Program-made: the position numbers and the translations under genes
NCBI RefSeq assembly: GCF_003334355.1
Contig: NZ_QOWP01000006.1
DNA: 64,000 nt
Source: Escherichia coli
GTDB lineage: Bacteria > Pseudomonadota > Gammaproteobacteria > Enterobacterales > Enterobacteriaceae
Direction: 5' to 3' (one strand)
Notes under the pieces: generated by a model
Told to the model about the DNA's origin: nothing
What the model saw: the letters and a program-made list of their open reading frames with translations, nothing else
Database searches by the model: none
Shown: positions 1 through 51,014 of the stretch, in pieces
Layout of the letters: every line of letters starts with the position of its first letter
How positions within the stretch are numbered: position 1 is the first letter of the stretch

Positions 1-1046
1 CGCCGATGTCGATTATTTCCGGCGTCGGGCGGGCGGCTGAGTTTGGCGTGCTGGTGCGGGACGCCGACGCGCTGCAACGCGCCAGTACACTCGATACCGT
101 CGTGTTCGATAAAACCGGGACGCTGACCGAAGGGAAGCCGCAGGTTGTCGCAGTGAAAACGTTTGCTGATGTTGATGAAGCGCAGGCATTGCGTCTGGCG
201 GCGGCACTGGAGCAAGGTTCCAGCCATCCGCTGGCACGGGCGATCCTCGATAAAGCAGGTGATATGCAGCTGCCGCAGGTCAACGGTTTCCGCACATTGC
301 GCGGGCTGGGCGTGAGCGGTGAAGCTGAAGGTCATGCGTTATTGCTGGGCAATCAGGCGTTGTTAAATGATCAGCAAGTCGATACTAAAGCGATTGAAGC
401 CGATATTTCAGCTCAGGCATCGCAAGGGGCAACGCCTGTGCTGCTGGCGGTTGACGGGAAAGCGGTAGCCCTGCTGGCAGTACGCGATCCGTTGCGTAGT
501 GATAGCGTGGCGGCGCTGCAACGCCTGCATAAAGCGGGATATCGTCTGGTGATGTTGACCGGGGATAACCCAACCACCGCCAATGCGATCGCCAAAGAAG
601 CCGGGATTGATGAGGTGATAGCCGGGGTGCTGCCGGACGGTAAAGCCGAAGCGATCAAACGTCTGCAAAGTGAAGGACGTCAGGTGGCAATGGTGGGCGA
701 CGGCATTAACGATGCGCCAGCGCTGGCCCAGGCAGATGTCGGCATTGCAATGGGCGGCGGCAGTGATGTTGCCATTGAAACCGCGGCGATTACCCTGATG
801 CGCCATAGCCTGATGGGCGTTGCGGATGCGCTCGCTATTTCCCGCGCAACGCTGCGCAACATGAAGCAGAACCTGCTCGGTGCCTTTATCTACAACAGCA
901 TCGGTATTCCGGTCGCCGCCGGTATTTTGTGGCCGTTTACTGGAACACTGCTTAACCCGGTAGTTGCCGGAGCGGCAATGGCGCTCTCGTCGATTACCGT
1001 AGTGAGTAACGCCAACCGGTTGCTGCGGTTTAAACCGAAGGAATAA
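1..1046 (+). CDS. copA: Copper-exporting P-type ATPase CopA, C-terminal part (5' end lies outside window)
   Basis: Frame is open to the window start; translation carries P-type ATPase hallmarks (DKTGTLT phosphorylation motif, [14 protein letters not shown] hinge); stop TAA at 1044..1046. Confidence 0.93.
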
Positions 1047-1099
1047 GTACGTCATTGCGGATGCGCTGCTTTAGGGCGGCGCATTTGGCATCGACGCAT

Positions 1100-1240
1100 G
1101 ACTGCCGGATGCGGCGTGAACGCCTTATCCGGCCTACGGTTCAGGCACAAGTTTGTAGGCCTGATAAGACGGGTAAGCGTCGCATCAGGCAATGGTGCTC
1201 GGATGCCGGATGCGGCGTGAACGCCTTATCCGGCCTACGA
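1100..1240. repeat. REP/BIME cluster: three REP palindromes (two near-identical direct copies GCCGGATGCGGCGTGAACGCCTTATCCGGCCTAC flanking an inverted copy)
   Basis: Direct inspection: the same ~35 nt GC-rich palindromic unit occurs at about 1104..1138 and 1205..1239 with an inverted variant at about 1155..1190, in the gap between convergent copA and ybaQ. Confidence 0.85.
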
Positions 1241-1260
1241 GATGAAGCGATGTTTTGGCC

Positions 1261-1602
1261 TTACGCGACCTTTTTTGCACGCTCTTCACGGCGTGCCAAA
1301 TATTCAGCCACTGTTTCAATCCGTCCCAATTCTTCCTGGGTGCGCAGGTTGTTTTCAACTTCCCAAAGATCAACCGCCGCCTGGAGGTTTAGCCAAAAAT
1401 CGACTGTGGTATCAAAAACTTTCGCCAGACGAAATGCCATCTCAGTAGTGAGTTTACGATTGTTATTGATCAGTGCACTGACGCTATTACGATGAACATG
1501 CAGCAACTCTGCTAACTCATTGATTTTCAAATCGAGCGGTTCCAGATATTCATAGAGAAGAATATCTCCGGGTGTCGTCGGTTTTCTTGTTGCCTGTTTC
1601 AT
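1261..1602 (-). CDS. ybaQ: HTH-type regulator YbaQ (XRE/HigA antitoxin-like, no adjacent toxin gene)
   Basis: ORF 1261..1656(-); start placed at internal Met (MKQATRKPTT...) giving 113 aa; helix-turn-helix region LKINELAELLHVHRNSVSALINN typical of the XRE/HigA family. Confidence 0.8.
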   Translation of the reverse strand: MKQATRKPTTPGDILLYEYLEPLDLKINELAELLHVHRNSVSALINNNRKLTTEMAFRLAKVFDTTVDFWLNLQAAVDLWEVENNLRTQEELGRIETVAEYLARREERAKKVA

Positions 1603-1739
1603 GGTTTTTAACTGTTGCTTCCTTGTGAATAGCGATGCAAGAACATACTGAATCATACAAACACATTAAACAAGTCTCCAACTCCATTTGCGCCATCCCT
1701 CACCGCGCGCTAGCATGATATTTCACAAAGGGAGGTCGT

Positions 1740-2534
1740 ATGGATCTGTTGTACCGGGTAAAAACGCTTTGGGCCGCGCTGCGCGGTAATCATTACACCT
1801 GGCCTGCCATCGATATCACCCTCCCCGGCAATCGCCATTTTCATCTGATTGGCAGTATTCATATGGGTAGCCACGATATGGCTCCCCTGCCCACCCGTTT
1901 GCTCAAAAAGCTCAAAAACGCCGATGCGCTGATCGTCGAGGCGGATGTTTCCACCAGCGATACGCCTTTTGCTAATTTGCCTGCCTGCGAGGCGCTGGAA
2001 GAGCGCATTAGCGAGGAGCAACTCCAAAACCTGCAGCACATTAGCCAGGAGATGGGCATTTCTCCCTCACTCTTTTCTACCCAACCGCTGTGGCAAATCG
2101 CGATGGTTCTTCAGGCGACGCAGGCACAAAAACTGGGGCTGCGGGCAGAATACGGTATCGATTACCAGCTATTGCAGGCGGCGAAGCAACAACATAAACC
2201 CGTGATTGAACTGGAAGGGGCTGAAAACCAGATTGCCATGTTGCTCCAGCTCCCTGACAAAGGACTGGCGCTGCTGGACGATACGCTGACCCACTGGCAT
2301 ACCAACGCACGGTTGCTGCAACAAATGATGAGCTGGTGGCTGAATGCACCGCCGCAAAATAATGATATAACGCTGCCCAATACGTTCAGTCAGTCGCTGT
2401 ACGATGTGCTGATGCATCAGCGAAATCTCGCCTGGCGGGATAAATTACGCGCCATGCCGCCGGGGCGATATGTGGTCGCGGTCGGTGCACTACACCTGTA
2501 TGGAGAAGGGAATTTGCCGCAAATGTTGCGCTAA
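1740..2534 (+). CDS. ybaP: TraB/GumN-family protein YbaP
   Basis: ORF 1740..2534(+), 264 aa; preceded by GGAGG SD (aagggaggtcgtATG); protein recognised as E. coli YbaP. Confidence 0.85.
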   Translation: MDLLYRVKTLWAALRGNHYTWPAIDITLPGNRHFHLIGSIHMGSHDMAPLPTRLLKKLKNADALIVEADVSTSDTPFANLPACEALEERISEEQLQNLQHISQEMGISPSLFSTQPLWQIAMVLQATQAQKLGLRAEYGIDYQLLQAAKQQHKPVIELEGAENQIAMLLQLPDKGLALLDDTLTHWHTNARLLQQMMSWWLNAPPQNNDITLPNTFSQSLYDVLMHQRNLAWRDKLRAMPPGRYVVAVGALHLYGEGNLPQMLR

Positions 2535-2617
2535 AAAAATGGCCAATATCGCTATTGGCCCGTCAAAGAGGAATTTCATTTTTTTATTATTATGCCGTCA
2601 CTTTAAGCGACGGTGTA
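2535..2617 (-). ncRNA. chiX: Hfq-dependent small RNA ChiX (MicM/SroB)
   Basis: Minus-strand sequence ACACCGTCGCTTAAAGTGACGGCATAATAATAAAAAAATGAAATTCCTCTTTGACGGGCCAATAGCGATATTGGCCATTTTTTT: 5' stem-loop, AU-rich single-stranded stretch, then GC hairpin plus U-run terminator; lies in the ybaP-ybaK gap; not in the ORF track. Confidence 0.85.
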
Positions 2618-2722
2618 ACTCGATTGTCGCTCAATCTCACCATCCTGCCAATACTCTTAGGCAAGATGACTCTTTTTTTTGGACCGCCATCAGGCGTATG
2701 CTTGCTTCGTTTTTTTGTTTAA

Positions 2723-3217
<495 letters not shown>

Positions 3218-3222
3218 GCATT

Positions 3223-3249
3223 GTGCCGGATGCAAACATCCGGCACTTT
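3223..3249. terminator. Bidirectional hairpin terminator between convergent ybaK and ushA
   Basis: Perfect inverted repeat GTGCCGGATG-CAAA-CATCCGGCAC followed by TTT, between the ybaK stop (3217) and ushA stop (3254). Confidence 0.7.
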
Positions 3250-3253
3250 CGGA

Positions 3254-4906
3254 TTACTGCCAGCTCACCTCACCTTTCGGTTCATAAACACTCACATCCA
3301 GCGGCGAGCTTTTCTGGATATACGCTTTCAGCACTTCGGCATCAATAAAGCCGGTATTCACATAGCCCGGTTTGTTATCAAGGCGCGGATATCCATCACC
3401 GCCGGTGGCATTGAAGTTTAATGTCGCCATACGGTAAGTTTTCGCCGGATCGACCGGTTCGCCTTTGATTTTAAGGTCGTTCAGTTTGCCGTCTTTCGCC
3501 ACAAAGCTAACGTTGGCAAATTGCGGGTAGGCACCTGAATCTGGCTTCATCTGCGCGACGGCGGTCAGGTAATCAATCACCTCTTTACCGGTCATGTCGG
3601 CATACACCACCACATTGCCGAATGGCTGCACTTTCAGCACGTTTTTATAGCTGATATCGCCTGCTTCGATAGAATCACGAATTCCGCCTCCGCTCATCAC
3701 CGCAAAGTCGGCACCAGTGCGATCCATTTGGGCTGCCAGAATCAACCGCCCCATATTGGTCTGTACAAAACGCACTTTGTCACGATCGCCTTCCAGACGA
3801 CCATTGGTTTCGCCTATTTTCACTTCCAGCTGCGCTTTGCCTTTGTTCTGGAACGGTGATAACAGCGAGATCATTTGCTGGTTTTCAGCGATTTCAGGAG
3901 TGTAAAGCACGCGCTCGCTTTTCCCGTCTTCCCAGGTCACTTTCTTCTTCAGGTTCACCGGAATCAGCTGGTAGTTAACCATTTTCATTTCGCCATTACG
4001 AAACTCAAAATCAGCCCGTCCCACGTATTTGCCCCACTCATGCGCCTGCACAATCCAGATGCCGTTTTGTTGATCTGGTTTGCATGGCGTACCCGGCACG
4101 TAATCGACCTGTTTTTTGTTTTCTGCCGCCATGCAGACCGGATCTTGCGAGTGACCACCGACGATCATCGCCAGCGATCCGGCAGGCAGCGCGCGTGCCA
4201 TCTCCACATCGCCCGGTGCGTTAGAGCCGTGCTCACCATTATCGTAATGCCCCATATGGGTCGCCGCGATAATAATGTCTGGCTTTTCTGTCTGTTGCAG
4301 CTCCTGAATCACCAGCTTCGCTTCATCGGCGGGCTTACGAAATTCGATATCAGTGAAGTATTCCGGGTTACCAATTTTTGCTGTGTCATCGGTTGTCAGC
4401 CCAATAACGGCAATTTTCAGATCCTGACGCTTAAACAGCGCCCACGGTTTAAACAGGCGCTCGCCAGTACTTTTCTGGTAGATATTCGCGGAAAGCAACG
4501 GGAACTTGGCCCACTTTTCCTGCTGGCGTAATACGGTGAGCGGATTATCAAATTCATGATTACCGATCGCCATCGCGTCATAGCCCACCAGATTCATACC
4601 GCGAAAATCAGGTTCGGCATCCTGTAAGTCAGACTCGGGCACGCCAGTGTTAATGTCGCCACCGGAAAGTAGCAGCACGCTACCGCCTTCAGCCGCAACC
4701 TCTTTGCGGATACCATCCACCAGCGTTTTTTGCGCCGCCAGACCATATTCGCCATATTCATTGCGCCAAAAATGCCCATGATGATCATTGGTATGCAGAA
4801 CTGTAATTTTGTAGGTTTTATCCTGCTCATACGCCAGAGCAGTTTCACTCGCCAGTGTAAATGTGGTTAACAGCGCTAACGCCACGCCCCGCTGCAATAA
4901 TTTCAT
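3254..4906 (-). CDS. ushA: Periplasmic 5'-nucleotidase / UDP-sugar hydrolase UshA
   Basis: ORF 3254..4906(-), 550 aa; N-terminal signal peptide (MKLLQRGVALALLTTFTLASETALA); calcineurin-like metallophosphatase motifs (DHHGH, GNHEFD). Confidence 0.93.
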   Translation of the reverse strand: MKLLQRGVALALLTTFTLASETALAYEQDKTYKITVLHTNDHHGHFWRNEYGEYGLAAQKTLVDGIRKEVAAEGGSVLLLSGGDINTGVPESDLQDAEPDFRGMNLVGYDAMAIGNHEFDNPLTVLRQQEKWAKFPLLSANIYQKSTGERLFKPWALFKRQDLKIAVIGLTTDDTAKIGNPEYFTDIEFRKPADEAKLVIQELQQTEKPDIIIAATHMGHYDNGEHGSNAPGDVEMARALPAGSLAMIVGGHSQDPVCMAAENKKQVDYVPGTPCKPDQQNGIWIVQAHEWGKYVGRADFEFRNGEMKMVNYQLIPVNLKKKVTWEDGKSERVLYTPEIAENQQMISLLSPFQNKGKAQLEVKIGETNGRLEGDRDKVRFVQTNMGRLILAAQMDRTGADFAVMSGGGIRDSIEAGDISYKNVLKVQPFGNVVVYADMTGKEVIDYLTAVAQMKPDSGAYPQFANVSFVAKDGKLNDLKIKGEPVDPAKTYRMATLNFNATGGDGYPRLDNKPGYVNTGFIDAEVLKAYIQKSSPLDVSVYEPKGEVSWQ

Positions 4907-5123
4907 ACTTCTCTCCCTGACCTGATTTCAACGTGTTGAAAAATAGTATGACGCGACATCATAGACAAGTCTGCGTCCGGTGAAGATAAATCTGCATCCA
5001 GATTAGAAATTCTGTATTCGGCGTTGAGACTTCCTTCAGACGACGCATACAGGTATGTTAGTCTGGTAATAATCACAAATAAGATCATTCTTTACATCGC
5101 AACCCTGAAAAAGTGACTTTCCT

Positions 5124-6344
5124 ATGGCAATGAGTGAACAACCCCAGCCTGTGGCGGGCGCGGCTGCGTCAACGACCAAGGCCCGAACATCGTTTGGTAT
5201 TTTAGGTGCTATCAGCCTCTCACATCTGCTGAACGACATGATCCAATCGCTGATTCTGGCGATTTATCCGCTGCTTCAGTCAGAATTTTCTCTGACATTT
5301 ATGCAGATTGGCATGATAACCCTCACCTTCCAGCTCGCCTCTTCGCTACTGCAACCAGTGGTCGGCTACTGGACCGATAAATATCCGATGCCATGGTCGT
5401 TGCCAATTGGCATGTGCTTTACCTTAAGCGGTCTGGTGCTGCTTGCGCTGGCGGGCAGTTTTGGCGCAGTTCTGCTGGCGGCGGCGCTGGTCGGTACCGG
5501 TTCATCGGTCTTTCATCCGGAATCTTCTCGCGTGGCCCGTATGGCTTCCGGCGGGCGGCATGGCCTGGCGCAATCTATCTTTCAGGTCGGCGGCAACTTT
5601 GGCAGTTCCCTGGGACCCTTGCTGGCGGCGGTGATTATCGCGCCTTATGGCAAAGGCAACGTTGCCTGGTTTGTGCTTGCGGCACTGCTGGCGATCGTGG
5701 TGTTGGCGCAAATCAGCCGTTGGTACTCGGCACAGCACCGAATGAATAAAGGAAAACCCAAAGCGACGATTATCAATCCACTGCCGCGCAATAAAGTTGT
5801 ACTGGCGGTCAGCATTCTGTTAATCCTCATTTTCTCGAAATATTTCTATATGGCGAGCATCAGCAGCTATTACACCTTTTATCTGATGCAAAAATTCGGA
5901 TTATCTATCCAGAATGCTCAGCTTCATCTGTTTGCCTTCCTGTTTGCCGTTGCGGCAGGTACGGTGATCGGCGGGCCTGTAGGGGATAAAATTGGGCGGA
6001 AATATGTGATTTGGGGCTCTATCCTCGGCGTTGCGCCGTTTACGCTGATTTTACCCTACGCCAGCCTGCACTGGACGGGGGTTTTAACGGTGATTATTGG
6101 ATTTATCCTCGCTTCGGCATTCTCTGCCATTCTGGTCTACGCTCAGGAGCTGCTTCCAGGACGTATCGGTATGGTTTCTGGACTCTTTTTCGGTTTTGCT
6201 TTTGGCATGGGAGGTCTGGGAGCGGCAGTTCTGGGGCTTATCGCCGATCACACCAGCATCGAGTTAGTCTATAAAATCTGTGCTTTCCTGCCACTATTGG
6301 GGATGTTGACCATATTCCTGCCTGATAACCGGCATAAAGACTGA
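5124..6344 (+). CDS. fsr: Fosmidomycin-resistance MFS transporter Fsr
   Basis: ORF 5124..6344(+), 406 aa; hydrophobic multi-span MFS-like profile; recognised as Fsr. Confidence 0.88.
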   Translation: MAMSEQPQPVAGAAASTTKARTSFGILGAISLSHLLNDMIQSLILAIYPLLQSEFSLTFMQIGMITLTFQLASSLLQPVVGYWTDKYPMPWSLPIGMCFTLSGLVLLALAGSFGAVLLAAALVGTGSSVFHPESSRVARMASGGRHGLAQSIFQVGGNFGSSLGPLLAAVIIAPYGKGNVAWFVLAALLAIVVLAQISRWYSAQHRMNKGKPKATIINPLPRNKVVLAVSILLILIFSKYFYMASISSYYTFYLMQKFGLSIQNAQLHLFAFLFAVAAGTVIGGPVGDKIGRKYVIWGSILGVAPFTLILPYASLHWTGVLTVIIGFILASAFSAILVYAQELLPGRIGMVSGLFFGFAFGMGGLGAAVLGLIADHTSIELVYKICAFLPLLGMLTIFLPDNRHKD

Positions 6345-6581
6345 TTTCATTGCAGCCAAAGGCAAACTTTGGCTGCATCGTTTTACAGTCGCCATAAGCC
6401 TTTCCTCTGTTAAACCGCCTTCTGTTTTCCGATCCGTGCTTTTTTTGCAGCTAATTCCATTTTTCTGCAAAATTCAATAATTATTCATGAACATCATCAA
6501 TGAAATTGTCATAAACTATTACCTGTAATTTTGGTTTTCCCGGCCAAAAATGGACAATAACCACCAGGAAAAGGAGACGGA

Positions 6582-8258
6582 ATGCATCACGCCACCCCGC
6601 TTATCACCACCATTGTTGGCGGCCTTGTGCTCGCCTTTATCCTCGGCATGCTGGCCAATAAACTACGTATTTCTCCTCTGGTGGGATATCTGTTAGCGGG
6701 TGTGCTGGCAGGACCATTCACTCCGGGCTTTGTTGCCGATACCAAGCTTGCCCCGGAACTGGCTGAACTGGGCGTCATTCTGTTGATGTTTGGCGTCGGT
6801 TTGCACTTTTCGCTGAAGGATTTGATGGCGGTAAAGGCCATCGCCATTCCCGGTGCGATCGCCCAGATAGCCGTGGCGACGCTGCTGGGTATGGCGCTCT
6901 CTGCCGTGCTGGGCTGGTCGTTAATGACCGGTATCGTGTTCGGTTTATGTCTTTCCACCGCCAGTACCGTGGTGTTACTGCGCGCACTTGAAGAACGGCA
7001 ATTAATTGACAGTCAGCGTGGGCAAATCGCCATCGGTTGGTTGATTGTGGAAGACCTGGTAATGGTTCTGACGCTGGTGTTGCTGCCCGCAGTGGCAGGA
7101 ATGATGGAACAGGGCGATGTGGGCTTTGCCACTCTTGCAGTCGATATGGGGATCACCATCGGCAAAGTGATCGCATTTATCGCCATTATGATGCTGGTAG
7201 GTCGCCGTCTGGTGCCGTGGATTATGGCACGCAGCGCGGCAACCGGTTCTCGCGAGCTGTTTACCCTGTCGGTGCTGGCGCTGGCGTTAGGGGTTGCCTT
7301 TGGTGCGGTAGAGCTGTTTGATGTCTCCTTTGCACTCGGTGCGTTCTTTGCCGGGATGGTACTGAACGAGTCTGAACTGAGTCACCGTGCCGCCCACGAT
7401 ACGCTGCCATTGCGCGACGCGTTTGCGGTGCTGTTTTTTGTCTCCGTCGGGATGTTGTTTGATCCGTTAATTCTGATTCAGCAACCGCTGGCAGTGCTGG
7501 CGACGCTGGCGATTATTCTGTTTGGTAAGTCGTTAGCCGCATTTTTCCTGGTGCGACTGTTTGGTCACTCCCAACGTACGGCATTAACCATCGCCGCCAG
7601 CCTGGCGCAGATTGGTGAGTTCGCGTTTATCCTGGCGGGACTGGGAATGGCATTGAATTTACTGCCGCAGGCCGGACAAAACCTGGTACTGGCAGGGGCG
7701 ATCCTGTCGATTATGCTCAACCCGGTACTGTTCGCACTACTGGAGAAATATCTGGCGAAGACCGAAACGCTGGAAGAGCAGACGCTGGAAGAGGCAATCG
7801 AAGAAGAGAAGCAGATCCCAGTGGATATTTGCAACCATGCGCTACTGGTGGGTTACGGTCGTGTAGGCAGCCTGCTGGGGGAGAAATTGCTCGCCTCTGA
7901 TATTCCGCTGGTGGTGATTGAGACGTCACGAACCCGTGTTGATGAGCTGCGAGAGCGCGGGGTCCGCGCAGTATTGGGCAATGCGGCGAACGAAGAAATT
8001 ATGCAACTGGCGCATCTGGAATGTGCAAAATGGCTGATCCTGACGATTCCCAACGGTTATGAAGCGGGTGAGATTGTGGCATCTGCCCGCGCGAAAAATC
8101 CGGATATTGAGATTATTGCCCGCGCCCATTATGACGATGAAGTGGCGTATATCACCGAACGTGGTGCGAATCAGGTAGTGATGGGCGAGCGTGAAATCGC
8201 CCGTACCATGCTGGAACTGCTGGAAACGCCACCGGCGGGTGAGGTGGTGACGGGGTAA
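6582..8258 (+). CDS. ybaL: CPA2-family cation:proton antiporter YbaL (Kef-type with C-terminal RCK/TrkA-N domain)
   Basis: ORF 6582..8258(+), 558 aa; membrane domain followed by Rossmann motif LLVGYGRVGSLLG typical of Kef/RCK. Confidence 0.9.
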   Translation: MHHATPLITTIVGGLVLAFILGMLANKLRISPLVGYLLAGVLAGPFTPGFVADTKLAPELAELGVILLMFGVGLHFSLKDLMAVKAIAIPGAIAQIAVATLLGMALSAVLGWSLMTGIVFGLCLSTASTVVLLRALEERQLIDSQRGQIAIGWLIVEDLVMVLTLVLLPAVAGMMEQGDVGFATLAVDMGITIGKVIAFIAIMMLVGRRLVPWIMARSAATGSRELFTLSVLALALGVAFGAVELFDVSFALGAFFAGMVLNESELSHRAAHDTLPLRDAFAVLFFVSVGMLFDPLILIQQPLAVLATLAIILFGKSLAAFFLVRLFGHSQRTALTIAASLAQIGEFAFILAGLGMALNLLPQAGQNLVLAGAILSIMLNPVLFALLEKYLAKTETLEEQTLEEAIEEEKQIPVDICNHALLVGYGRVGSLLGEKLLASDIPLVVIETSRTRVDELRERGVRAVLGNAANEEIMQLAHLECAKWLILTIPNGYEAGEIVASARAKNPDIEIIARAHYDDEVAYITERGANQVVMGEREIARTMLELLETPPAGEVVTG

Positions 8259-8289: not shown

Positions 8290-8380
8290 TATGTAGGCAT
8301 GATAAGACGCGCCAGCGTCGCATCAGGCATCGAGAGCCAAATGCCAGATGCGGCGTGAACGCCTTATCTGGCCTACGAAC
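8290..8380. repeat. REP/BIME cluster (two inverted REP units)
   Basis: GTAGGCATGATAAGACGCGCCAGCGTCGCATCAGGCA and TGCCAGATGCGGCGTGAACGCCTTATCTGGCCTAC between convergent ybaL and gsk. Confidence 0.85.
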
Positions 8381-33154: not shown

Positions 33155-33268
33155 GGGTGGGGGCCCTGCCAGCTACATCCCGGCACACGCGTCATCTGCC
33201 TTGGCTGCTTCCTTCCGGACCTGACCTGGTAAACAGAGTAGCGTTGCGGGAGAACCAACAGAGCCCCC
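33155..33268 (-). ncRNA. ffs: 4.5S RNA (signal recognition particle RNA)
   Basis: Minus strand reads GGGGGCTCTGTTGGTTCTCCCGCAACGCTACTCTGTTTACCAGGTCAGGTCCGGAAGGAAGCAGCCAAGGCAGATGACGCGTGTGCCGGGATGTAGCTGGCAGGGCCCCCACCC, the canonical 114 nt E. coli ffs, including the conserved domain IV GGAA tetraloop region. Confidence 0.95.
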
Positions 33269-50827: not shown

Positions 50828-50930
50828 AGAGCTCTCTCTTAGTTTAATTTCCGCCAGGTAATCAGATGACACGACTGTGCTTCACGCCATCTATTAACAT
50901 GTACGTCAGTATATGGGGATGTTTCCCCCA

Positions 50931-50958
50931 CATTCAACGCCGAGAATAGAGGAAAAAT
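50931..50958 (-). promoter_or_regulatory. sigma32 heat-shock promoter of lon
   Basis: Minus strand reads GTTGAATGTGGGGGAAACATCCCCATATACT: -35 TTGAA and -10 CCCCATAT upstream of the lon start. Confidence 0.75.
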
Positions 50959-51014
50959 TAAAGGGGAGATAAAATCCCCCCTTTTTGGTTAACTAATTGT
51001 ATGGGAATGGTTAA

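Follow-up and report, generated by a model that had tools for sequence, protein, structure and literature searches.

Positions 2533..2616 on the minus strand of the 64,000-nt stretch of Escherichia coli DNA analyzed here (the window) represent, with a probability of about 97%, the gene chiX (also MicM, RybC or SroB; b4585), which specifies an 84-nt, Hfq-dependent and constitutively made small RNA (sRNA). The assignment draws on a match to the Rfam family RF00368, on identity to b4585 and on published Term-seq data. In sequence, strand, flanking genes, promoter, seed, terminator and mapped 3' end the gene in the window is the same as ChiX/MicM/RybC/SroB (b4585), from which it differs in no respect; chiX is thus an already known, ordinary gene here, and no evidence contradicting its identification was encountered. 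Sequence identity, structure, seed complementarity, terminator geometry and conservation were assessed in the present analysis; expression, the 3' end, Hfq binding and target regulation are taken from published experiments with K-12, in which the sequence is identical.

Identity and genomic context of chiX

An Rfam scan of window positions 1..8000 found a match to sroB (RF00368) at 2533..2616 on the minus strand (82.1 bits versus a gathering score of 44; E = 2.2e-11), which covered the full length of the model (positions 1-83 of 83); the same sroB match was obtained when the whole window was scanned at gathering thresholds. Alignment to the annotated MG1655 chiX gene (b4585, NC_000913.3 507204..507287) showed that 84 of 84 bases are identical to the minus strand of this interval, so that near chiX a window coordinate equals 509820 minus the MG1655 coordinate. 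The original prediction had placed ChiX on the minus strand in the gap between ybaP and ybaK, at 2535..2617; both the Rfam score and the exact alignment bear out the strand and the locus, and the ends need to be corrected, as the predicted interval misses 2 nt at the 3' end and includes 1 nt too many at the 5' end.

Among 5426 complete E. coli genomes, a 401-nt query around chiX was found in 5423, with 100% identity in many of these, and chiX alone was present as a single copy in 5423, with at least 99% identity in 5012. As had been predicted, the gene is invisible to the open reading frame (ORF) track, and the PGAP annotation misses it too: PGAP-annotated RefSeq records list only ybaP and ybaK here and contain no chiX feature, unlike the curated K-12 record, which carries the gene. 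The missing feature in the PGAP records is a gap in the annotation pipeline and is no evidence against the gene.

The segment shows the gene order ushA-ybaK-chiX-ybaP-ybaQ-copA, in reversed orientation relative to MG1655. ybaP (1740..2534, plus strand; ORF list, RefSeq and MG1655 annotation), which encodes a TraB/GumN family protein, is convergent with ChiX, and ybaK (2738..3217, plus strand; ORF list and annotation), which encodes a Cys-tRNA(Pro)/Cys-tRNA(Cys) deacylase, is divergent and starts 121 nt from the ChiX 5' end. ChiX is hence located between ybaK and ybaP in an orientation opposite to both, a position also stated in PMC3384567 and PMC4355480. The gene order is identical in non-Proteus Enterobacterales, with ybaK-ChiX-ybaP synteny at all non-Proteus loci for which both neighbours could be located.

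Two other explanations for the interval were rejected. A chance resemblance or an unexpressed, degenerate pseudo-copy is extremely improbable given the E value of 2e-11, the full coverage of the model and the 100% identity to a characterised gene; the pseudo-copy reading is further opposed by an intact, conserved promoter and terminator and by the conservation of a single copy in nearly every E. coli genome. A small protein encoded by the plus-strand ORFs at 2470..2754 or 2555..2722 is without support; ChiX and its promoter account for the whole interval.

Promoter and structure of the ChiX RNA

A consensus scan identified a promoter on the minus strand at 2623..2651, with a -35 element TTGGCA (2646..2651), a spacer of 17 nt and a -10 element GACAAT (2623..2628) whose end precedes the annotated 5' end (2616) by 6 nt. 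This was the sole sigma-70-like site in 2300..2900, and ChiX is transcribed from it (TTGGCA-17-GACAAT) as from a promoter of its own. Across Enterobacteriaceae genera, conservation extends over TTGGCA, TTGAGCGACAAT and an upstream A-rich block.

The minimum-free-energy fold of the 84-nt RNA (z = -3.9) comprises a 5' hairpin, a single-stranded seed and a terminator hairpin. In this fold the 5' stem-loop is formed by nt 4-22 (CCGUCGCUUAAAGUGACGG; 2595..2613, minus strand). A MAFFT/RNAalifold alignment of 101 distinct homologues failed to align the divergent 5' hairpin and thus yielded no covariation for it; because of this, the hairpin was assessed by folding individual sequences in comparison with shuffles, and the 33 nt across it reached -5 kcal/mol or lower in 91% of 94 distinct homologues as compared to 43% of shuffles. 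The terminator hairpin, which the terminator scan called on the minus strand only, has an 8-bp stem and a 4-nt loop (2541..2560) and is followed by a run of 7 U (2533..2539, minus strand), the ChiX strand reading AUUUUUUU after the stem. In the alignment, all six of the 6 consensus pairs of this stem form in every one of the 101 distinct homologues, AU-to-GC double changes were observed at two positions, and the terminal U-run is 6-9 nt long in 101 of 101 homologues. ChiX ends at a canonical intrinsic terminator, i.e., the 8-bp hairpin followed by 7 U, and its published 3' end coincides with the last U.

Class II sRNAs bind the proximal face of Hfq with the long 3' U-tail of a Rho-independent terminator and its distal face with A-R-N motifs. 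The first of these features is present in ChiX as the 8-bp hairpin with U7. An A-rich linker (AAUAAUAAAAAA; 2580..2591, minus strand), counted from the sequence, contains four consecutive A-R-N triplets; as a run of at least four was also found in 61 of 2000 shuffles, and as most homologues have 2-3, this run stands out to a modest degree only. The Hfq-binding modules of ChiX would be its U-tail and this A-R-N-rich linker.

Seed pairing and the chitosugar circuit

The seed (UCCUCUUUGACG; 2561..2572, minus strand) is single-stranded in the fold and matches, over 12 nt and without mismatch, the complement of CGUCAAAGAGGA in the MG1655 chiP leader, a sequence that contains the Shine-Dalgarno shortly before the AUG. 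Likewise, CUCUUUGACGGG, which overlaps the seed, shows perfect 12-nt complementarity to CCCGUCAAAGAG in the chbB-chbC spacer of MG1655. Both pairings were checked on MG1655 sequences because the chiP and chb loci of this strain are located outside the 64 kb of the window. A full-length ChiX-chiP duplex prediction was over-extended and of weak significance (31 of 500 shuffles), and the argument for pairing is thus based on the perfect 12-nt core.

According to those parts of PMC7815308 that cite Figueroa-Bossi 2009, Overgaard 2009 and Bossi 2012, ChiX acts on chiP as a constitutive silencer and increases Rho-dependent termination in chiPQ, and it is sponged by the chitobiose-induced chbBC spacer RNA and by ChiZ, a fragment of the chiP leader. 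The circuit has also been shown in Proteus, in which MicM levels drop in an hfq mutant (PMC4355480). In published RIL-seq data, ChiX forms chimeras with chbC.chbB.IGT, chiZ and proQ, and in one library ChiX as second RNA accounted for approx. 5.3 of approx. 8.1 million Hfq-bound fragments.

Carried over to the strain represented by the window, this circuit would operate through the seed UCCUCUUUGACG, which is predicted to pair with the Shine-Dalgarno region of the mRNA of the chitoporin gene chiP (ybfM), with translation block and Rho-dependent termination within chiPQ as the likely outcome. Upon induction of the chb operon by chitosugars, the chbB-chbC spacer RNA would pair with the ChiX seed and lead to ChiX decay; ChiZ would pair with the same seed, and both RNAs would thereby relieve repression.

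Overlap of the ChiX 3' end with the ybaP stop codon

The ybaP stop codon (TAA) occupies 2532..2534 and the plus-strand A-run 2533..2539, so that ChiX and the ybaP coding sequence overlap by 2 nt, the last two U of the ChiX U-run being complementary to the AA of the TAA. The MG1655 annotation contains the same overlap (chiX ends at 507287, the ybaP coding sequence at 507286). The complementarity between the terminator U-run and the A-run at the ybaP stop had been recognized correctly in the original prediction, which described the terminator as abutting the stop codon and the A-run as following immediately after it; the two are adjacent as described, and more precisely they overlap, as the A-run includes the last two bases of the TAA.

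Published Term-seq data place the ChiX 3' end at MG1655 507287 (plus strand), i.e., at window position 2533, with scores of 445279, 552306 and 955394 in three conditions, and classify this end as "primary chiX, antisense ybaP" (PMC7815308, Supplementary file 1). An independent method (TRS) places it at 507287/507288 (PMC10687069). Inspection of mapped 3' ends on both strands thus supported the predicted end on the ChiX strand and found none listed on the ybaP strand: no ybaP-strand 3' ends in the interval are reported in either the Term-seq (PMC7815308) or the TRS (PMC10687069) data, an absence that carries little weight, as ybaP may be weakly expressed. The Term-seq tables included 3' ends within 200 nt upstream of ORFs and hence covered the ybaK leader.

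The relative position of the ybaP stop codon was further investigated among 120 ChiX loci, which were retrieved from contigs of one genome per species with a search pattern consisting of the seed and the first four bases of the terminator stem; 115 of these loci, all from Enterobacterales, could be evaluated. The stop codon overlaps the ChiX U-run in 93 of the 115, either as a TAA overlapping by 2 nt (89 loci) or, in Pantoea, as a TGA overlapping by 1 nt (4 loci). At 4 loci the ybaP ORF extends across the U-run to a stop within ChiX, at 7 the stop is located no more than 10 nt beyond the U-run and at 9 it is further away; in Proteus (2 loci) ybaP is present and ChiX is not adjacent to it. From these counts, the tail-to-tail overlap is therefore old and widespread. 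We read the conserved ybaP/ChiX overlap as genome compaction under joint constraint rather than as a demonstrated shared terminator.

The TAA in the U-run was lost (TTTTTTTG) at loci from Phytobacter (L022), Enterobacter sp. ENT03 (L033), an Enterobacteriaceae metagenome-assembled genome (L108) and Kosakonia (L111), in which the ybaP stop falls inside the ChiX hairpin or body. The overlap between coding sequence and sRNA is approx. 20 nt or more in L033, L108 and L111 and approx. 90 nt in L022.

The ChiX hairpin and termination of ybaP transcripts

It had also been proposed that the hairpin is a shared, bidirectional terminator, in which case ybaP transcripts would end at approx. 2560-2570, either intrinsically or through head-on collision with the dense polymerase traffic on chiX. 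ybaP and ChiX are convergent with a 2-nt overlap that is conserved in 93 of 115 species, and the same hairpin is transcribed in both directions. As in symmetric bidirectional intrinsic terminators, a single G+C-rich hairpin is located between convergent genes, with an A-tract on the ybaP-proximal side; the ChiX/ybaP junction differs from such terminators in that it is without a ybaP-sense U-tract and in that the sole documented 3' end belongs to the ChiX strand. The ybaP-sense strand reads CGUCAAAG after the hairpin, with 1 U in 8 bases, and the next ybaP-sense U-run (2579..2585) is 18 nt away; hence, in contrast to a bidirectional intrinsic terminator, a U-tract directly follows the stem on the ChiX strand only. 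The same 1 U in 8 was found at 115 of 115 loci, a uniformity that arises partly by construction, since the seed was part of the search pattern. The scan, moreover, called a terminator on the minus strand only, and the plus-strand fold was no better than shuffles (z = +0.3). A U-tract is lacking on the ybaP strand because this position is the complement of the ChiX seed, which is under selection; judged from the sequence, the seed would thus rule out a canonical terminator in the ybaP direction.

Termination driven by collision requires a hairpin but no intrinsic-terminator sequence and is stronger with strong promoters (bioRxiv 10.1101/2022.10.23.513370). The ChiX/ybaP junction resembles the collision-driven bidirectional terminators (Ju et al. 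2019; Wang et al. 2022) in that the two genes converge over a shared hairpin and chiX is very strongly transcribed. The signature of that class, i.e., overlapping 3' ends on both strands, is reported at the nearby ybaK/ushA junction, for which the consensus scan calls no terminator, but not at ChiX/ybaP; neither Term-seq nor TRS lists a 3' end on the ybaP strand, even though TRS detects the ybaK 3' end. As ybaP expression may be weak and collision needs no U-tract, termination of both ChiX and ybaP transcripts by the hairpin is rated as unproven, and overall we consider this explanation possible but doubtful.

The convergent ybaK/ushA junction (window 3218..3255) contains a hairpin with a 10-bp stem at approx. 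3225..3248 (GTGCCGGATG-CAAA-CATCCGGCAC), which is without a canonical U-tract and was missed by the consensus scan. Published 3' ends are located approx. 7 nt past this hairpin on both strands (MG1655 506602, plus, and 506565, minus). In contrast to the ChiX/ybaP junction, this hairpin looks like a genuine bidirectional terminator.

Rho-dependent termination on either strand

ybaP transcripts could alternatively be ended by Rho in the untranslated spacer past the stop codon, and not at the hairpin, an explanation that we regard as unlikely. The RNA is untranslated after the ybaP stop, and the plus strand contains a stretch at approx. 2595..2694 in which C exceeds G (18-20 C versus 9-10 G per 60 nt), a composition characteristic of sites at which Rho loads. 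On the opposite strand of this locus, Rho is known to act. However, the data with and without bicyclomycin list no such site on the ybaP strand, the sole ybaP entry being on the ChiX strand, even if low expression could hide one.

That sole entry is a Rho-termination region at MG1655 507468 (plus strand), i.e., at approx. window position 2352 and antisense to ybaP (score 3.7, P = 4e-10; PMC7815308, Supplementary file 2), at which coverage upstream and downstream was 1492 and 22 without bicyclomycin and 2100 and 115 with bicyclomycin (PMC7815308). The region is located on the ChiX strand approx. 180 nt downstream of the ChiX terminator and is antisense to ybaP; therefore, transcription on the ChiX strand continues past the terminator in a small proportion of cases, until Rho ends it. 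The documented direction of read-through is thus opposite to that considered in the original prediction, according to which ybaP read-through would be antisense to ChiX.

The arrangement is similar to excludon-like and other cis-antisense arrangements in that the low-level, Rho-terminated read-through on the ChiX strand is antisense to ybaP and in that an RNA reading through from ybaP, if made, would be complementary to all of ChiX. It differs from them in that the constitutive overlap between ChiX and ybaP is just 2 nt and that a regulatory effect on ybaP or ybaK is only hypothetical.

Read-through from ybaP across chiX

Read-through from ybaP is plausible, given the operon-like ybaP-ybaK junction of Proteus, and if it occurs, the geometry of the locus makes it antisense to ChiX. 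Under a further explanation, ybaP transcripts would cross the whole of chiX into ybaK, as a remnant of an ancestral ybaP-ybaK operon, and would carry a segment fully complementary to ChiX; such a read-through RNA might titrate ChiX, or the two might form a duplex that is cleaved. Part of the argument is comparative. Only 12 nt, with a Shine-Dalgarno between, separate the ybaP stop from the ybaK ATG in Proteus, in which ChiX is located elsewhere, i.e., between copA and another gene (PMC4355480). The spacer of other genera (median approx. 205 nt) holds ChiX in the opposite orientation. We observed the ybaP-ybaK junction TAAGTAGGAATAACTATG in Proteus cibi and P. columbae (L110 9150..9205 and L115 3660..3715) and also at L106 and L112. 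The Proteus junction suggests that an ancestral ybaP-ybaK operon was interrupted by chiX in other Enterobacterales.

In the window, 2300..2900 contains neither a canonical terminator on the ybaP strand nor a consensus sigma-70 promoter for ybaK. A block at approx. 2690..2705, between the ChiX promoter and the ybaK start, is conserved across Enterobacteriaceae genera (GGCGTATGCT on the plus strand, AGCATACGCC on the ChiX strand). This block may be a promoter of ybaK's own, which would speak against read-through; from its sequence, it might hold a ybaK -10 element (TATGCT) or a regulatory site. It also overlaps a weak, terminator-like plus-strand hairpin at 2691..2704.

Published RIL-seq data contain Hfq-associated fragments from the ybaP strand (MG1655 507215..507289) that are exactly antisense to ChiX. 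These fragments, which are labelled ybaP.EST3UTR, correspond to approx. 2531..2605 on the plus strand of the window, are chimeric with ArcZ and SdsR and could represent an anti-ChiX read-through RNA. However, these minus-strand fragments (in MG1655 coordinates) amount to approx. 0.2% of the ChiX fragments, coincide with the span of ChiX and were treated as ChiX by the authors, and it is no less probable that they are a strand artefact caused by the very high abundance of ChiX. The long-read operon supplement, furthermore, lists no ybaP-ybaK transcript; the SMRT-Cappable-seq supplements contain no entries for ybaP, ybaK or chiX. Taken together, read-through from ybaP into ybaK is tentative and, in our judgment, rather improbable. 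The full combination, i.e., an ancestral ybaP-ybaK operon in which chiX became lodged and whose residual read-through in E. coli is an Hfq-associated anti-ChiX RNA that acts as a cis sponge or as a substrate of RNase III, we consider very unlikely. If it were true, an anti-ChiX RNA from ybaP would couple the expression of ybaP and ybaK to ChiX activity.

Other elements in the window

REP-type palindromic repeats were observed at 1056..1235 and 8296..8373, with Rfam naRNA4 matches on both strands. The repeats between copA and ybaQ occupy a gap of approx. 214 nt here as compared to approx. 315 nt in MG1655, a difference that points to one repeat unit less in this strain; published Term-seq data report "orphan" 3' ends within the copA-ybaQ repeats of MG1655 (PMC7815308). 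Above the Rfam gathering thresholds, the window also contains the sRNA sraA (50899..50994, plus strand), the 4.5S/SRP RNA (ffs; 33164..33260, minus strand) and the dnaX frameshift element (16296..16360, minus strand).

Biological significance

ChiX confirms that a non-coding gene that is invisible to the ORF track can be recognized by reading the sequence alone. Characterisation of the sRNA itself and of its silencing of the chitoporin ChiP, which is controlled by decoys, dates back to 2009, and the present analysis makes two modest additions. The 2-nt overlap between the ybaP stop codon and the ChiX terminator has been kept across several Enterobacterales families, and the ChiX seed would preclude a canonical terminator in the ybaP direction.
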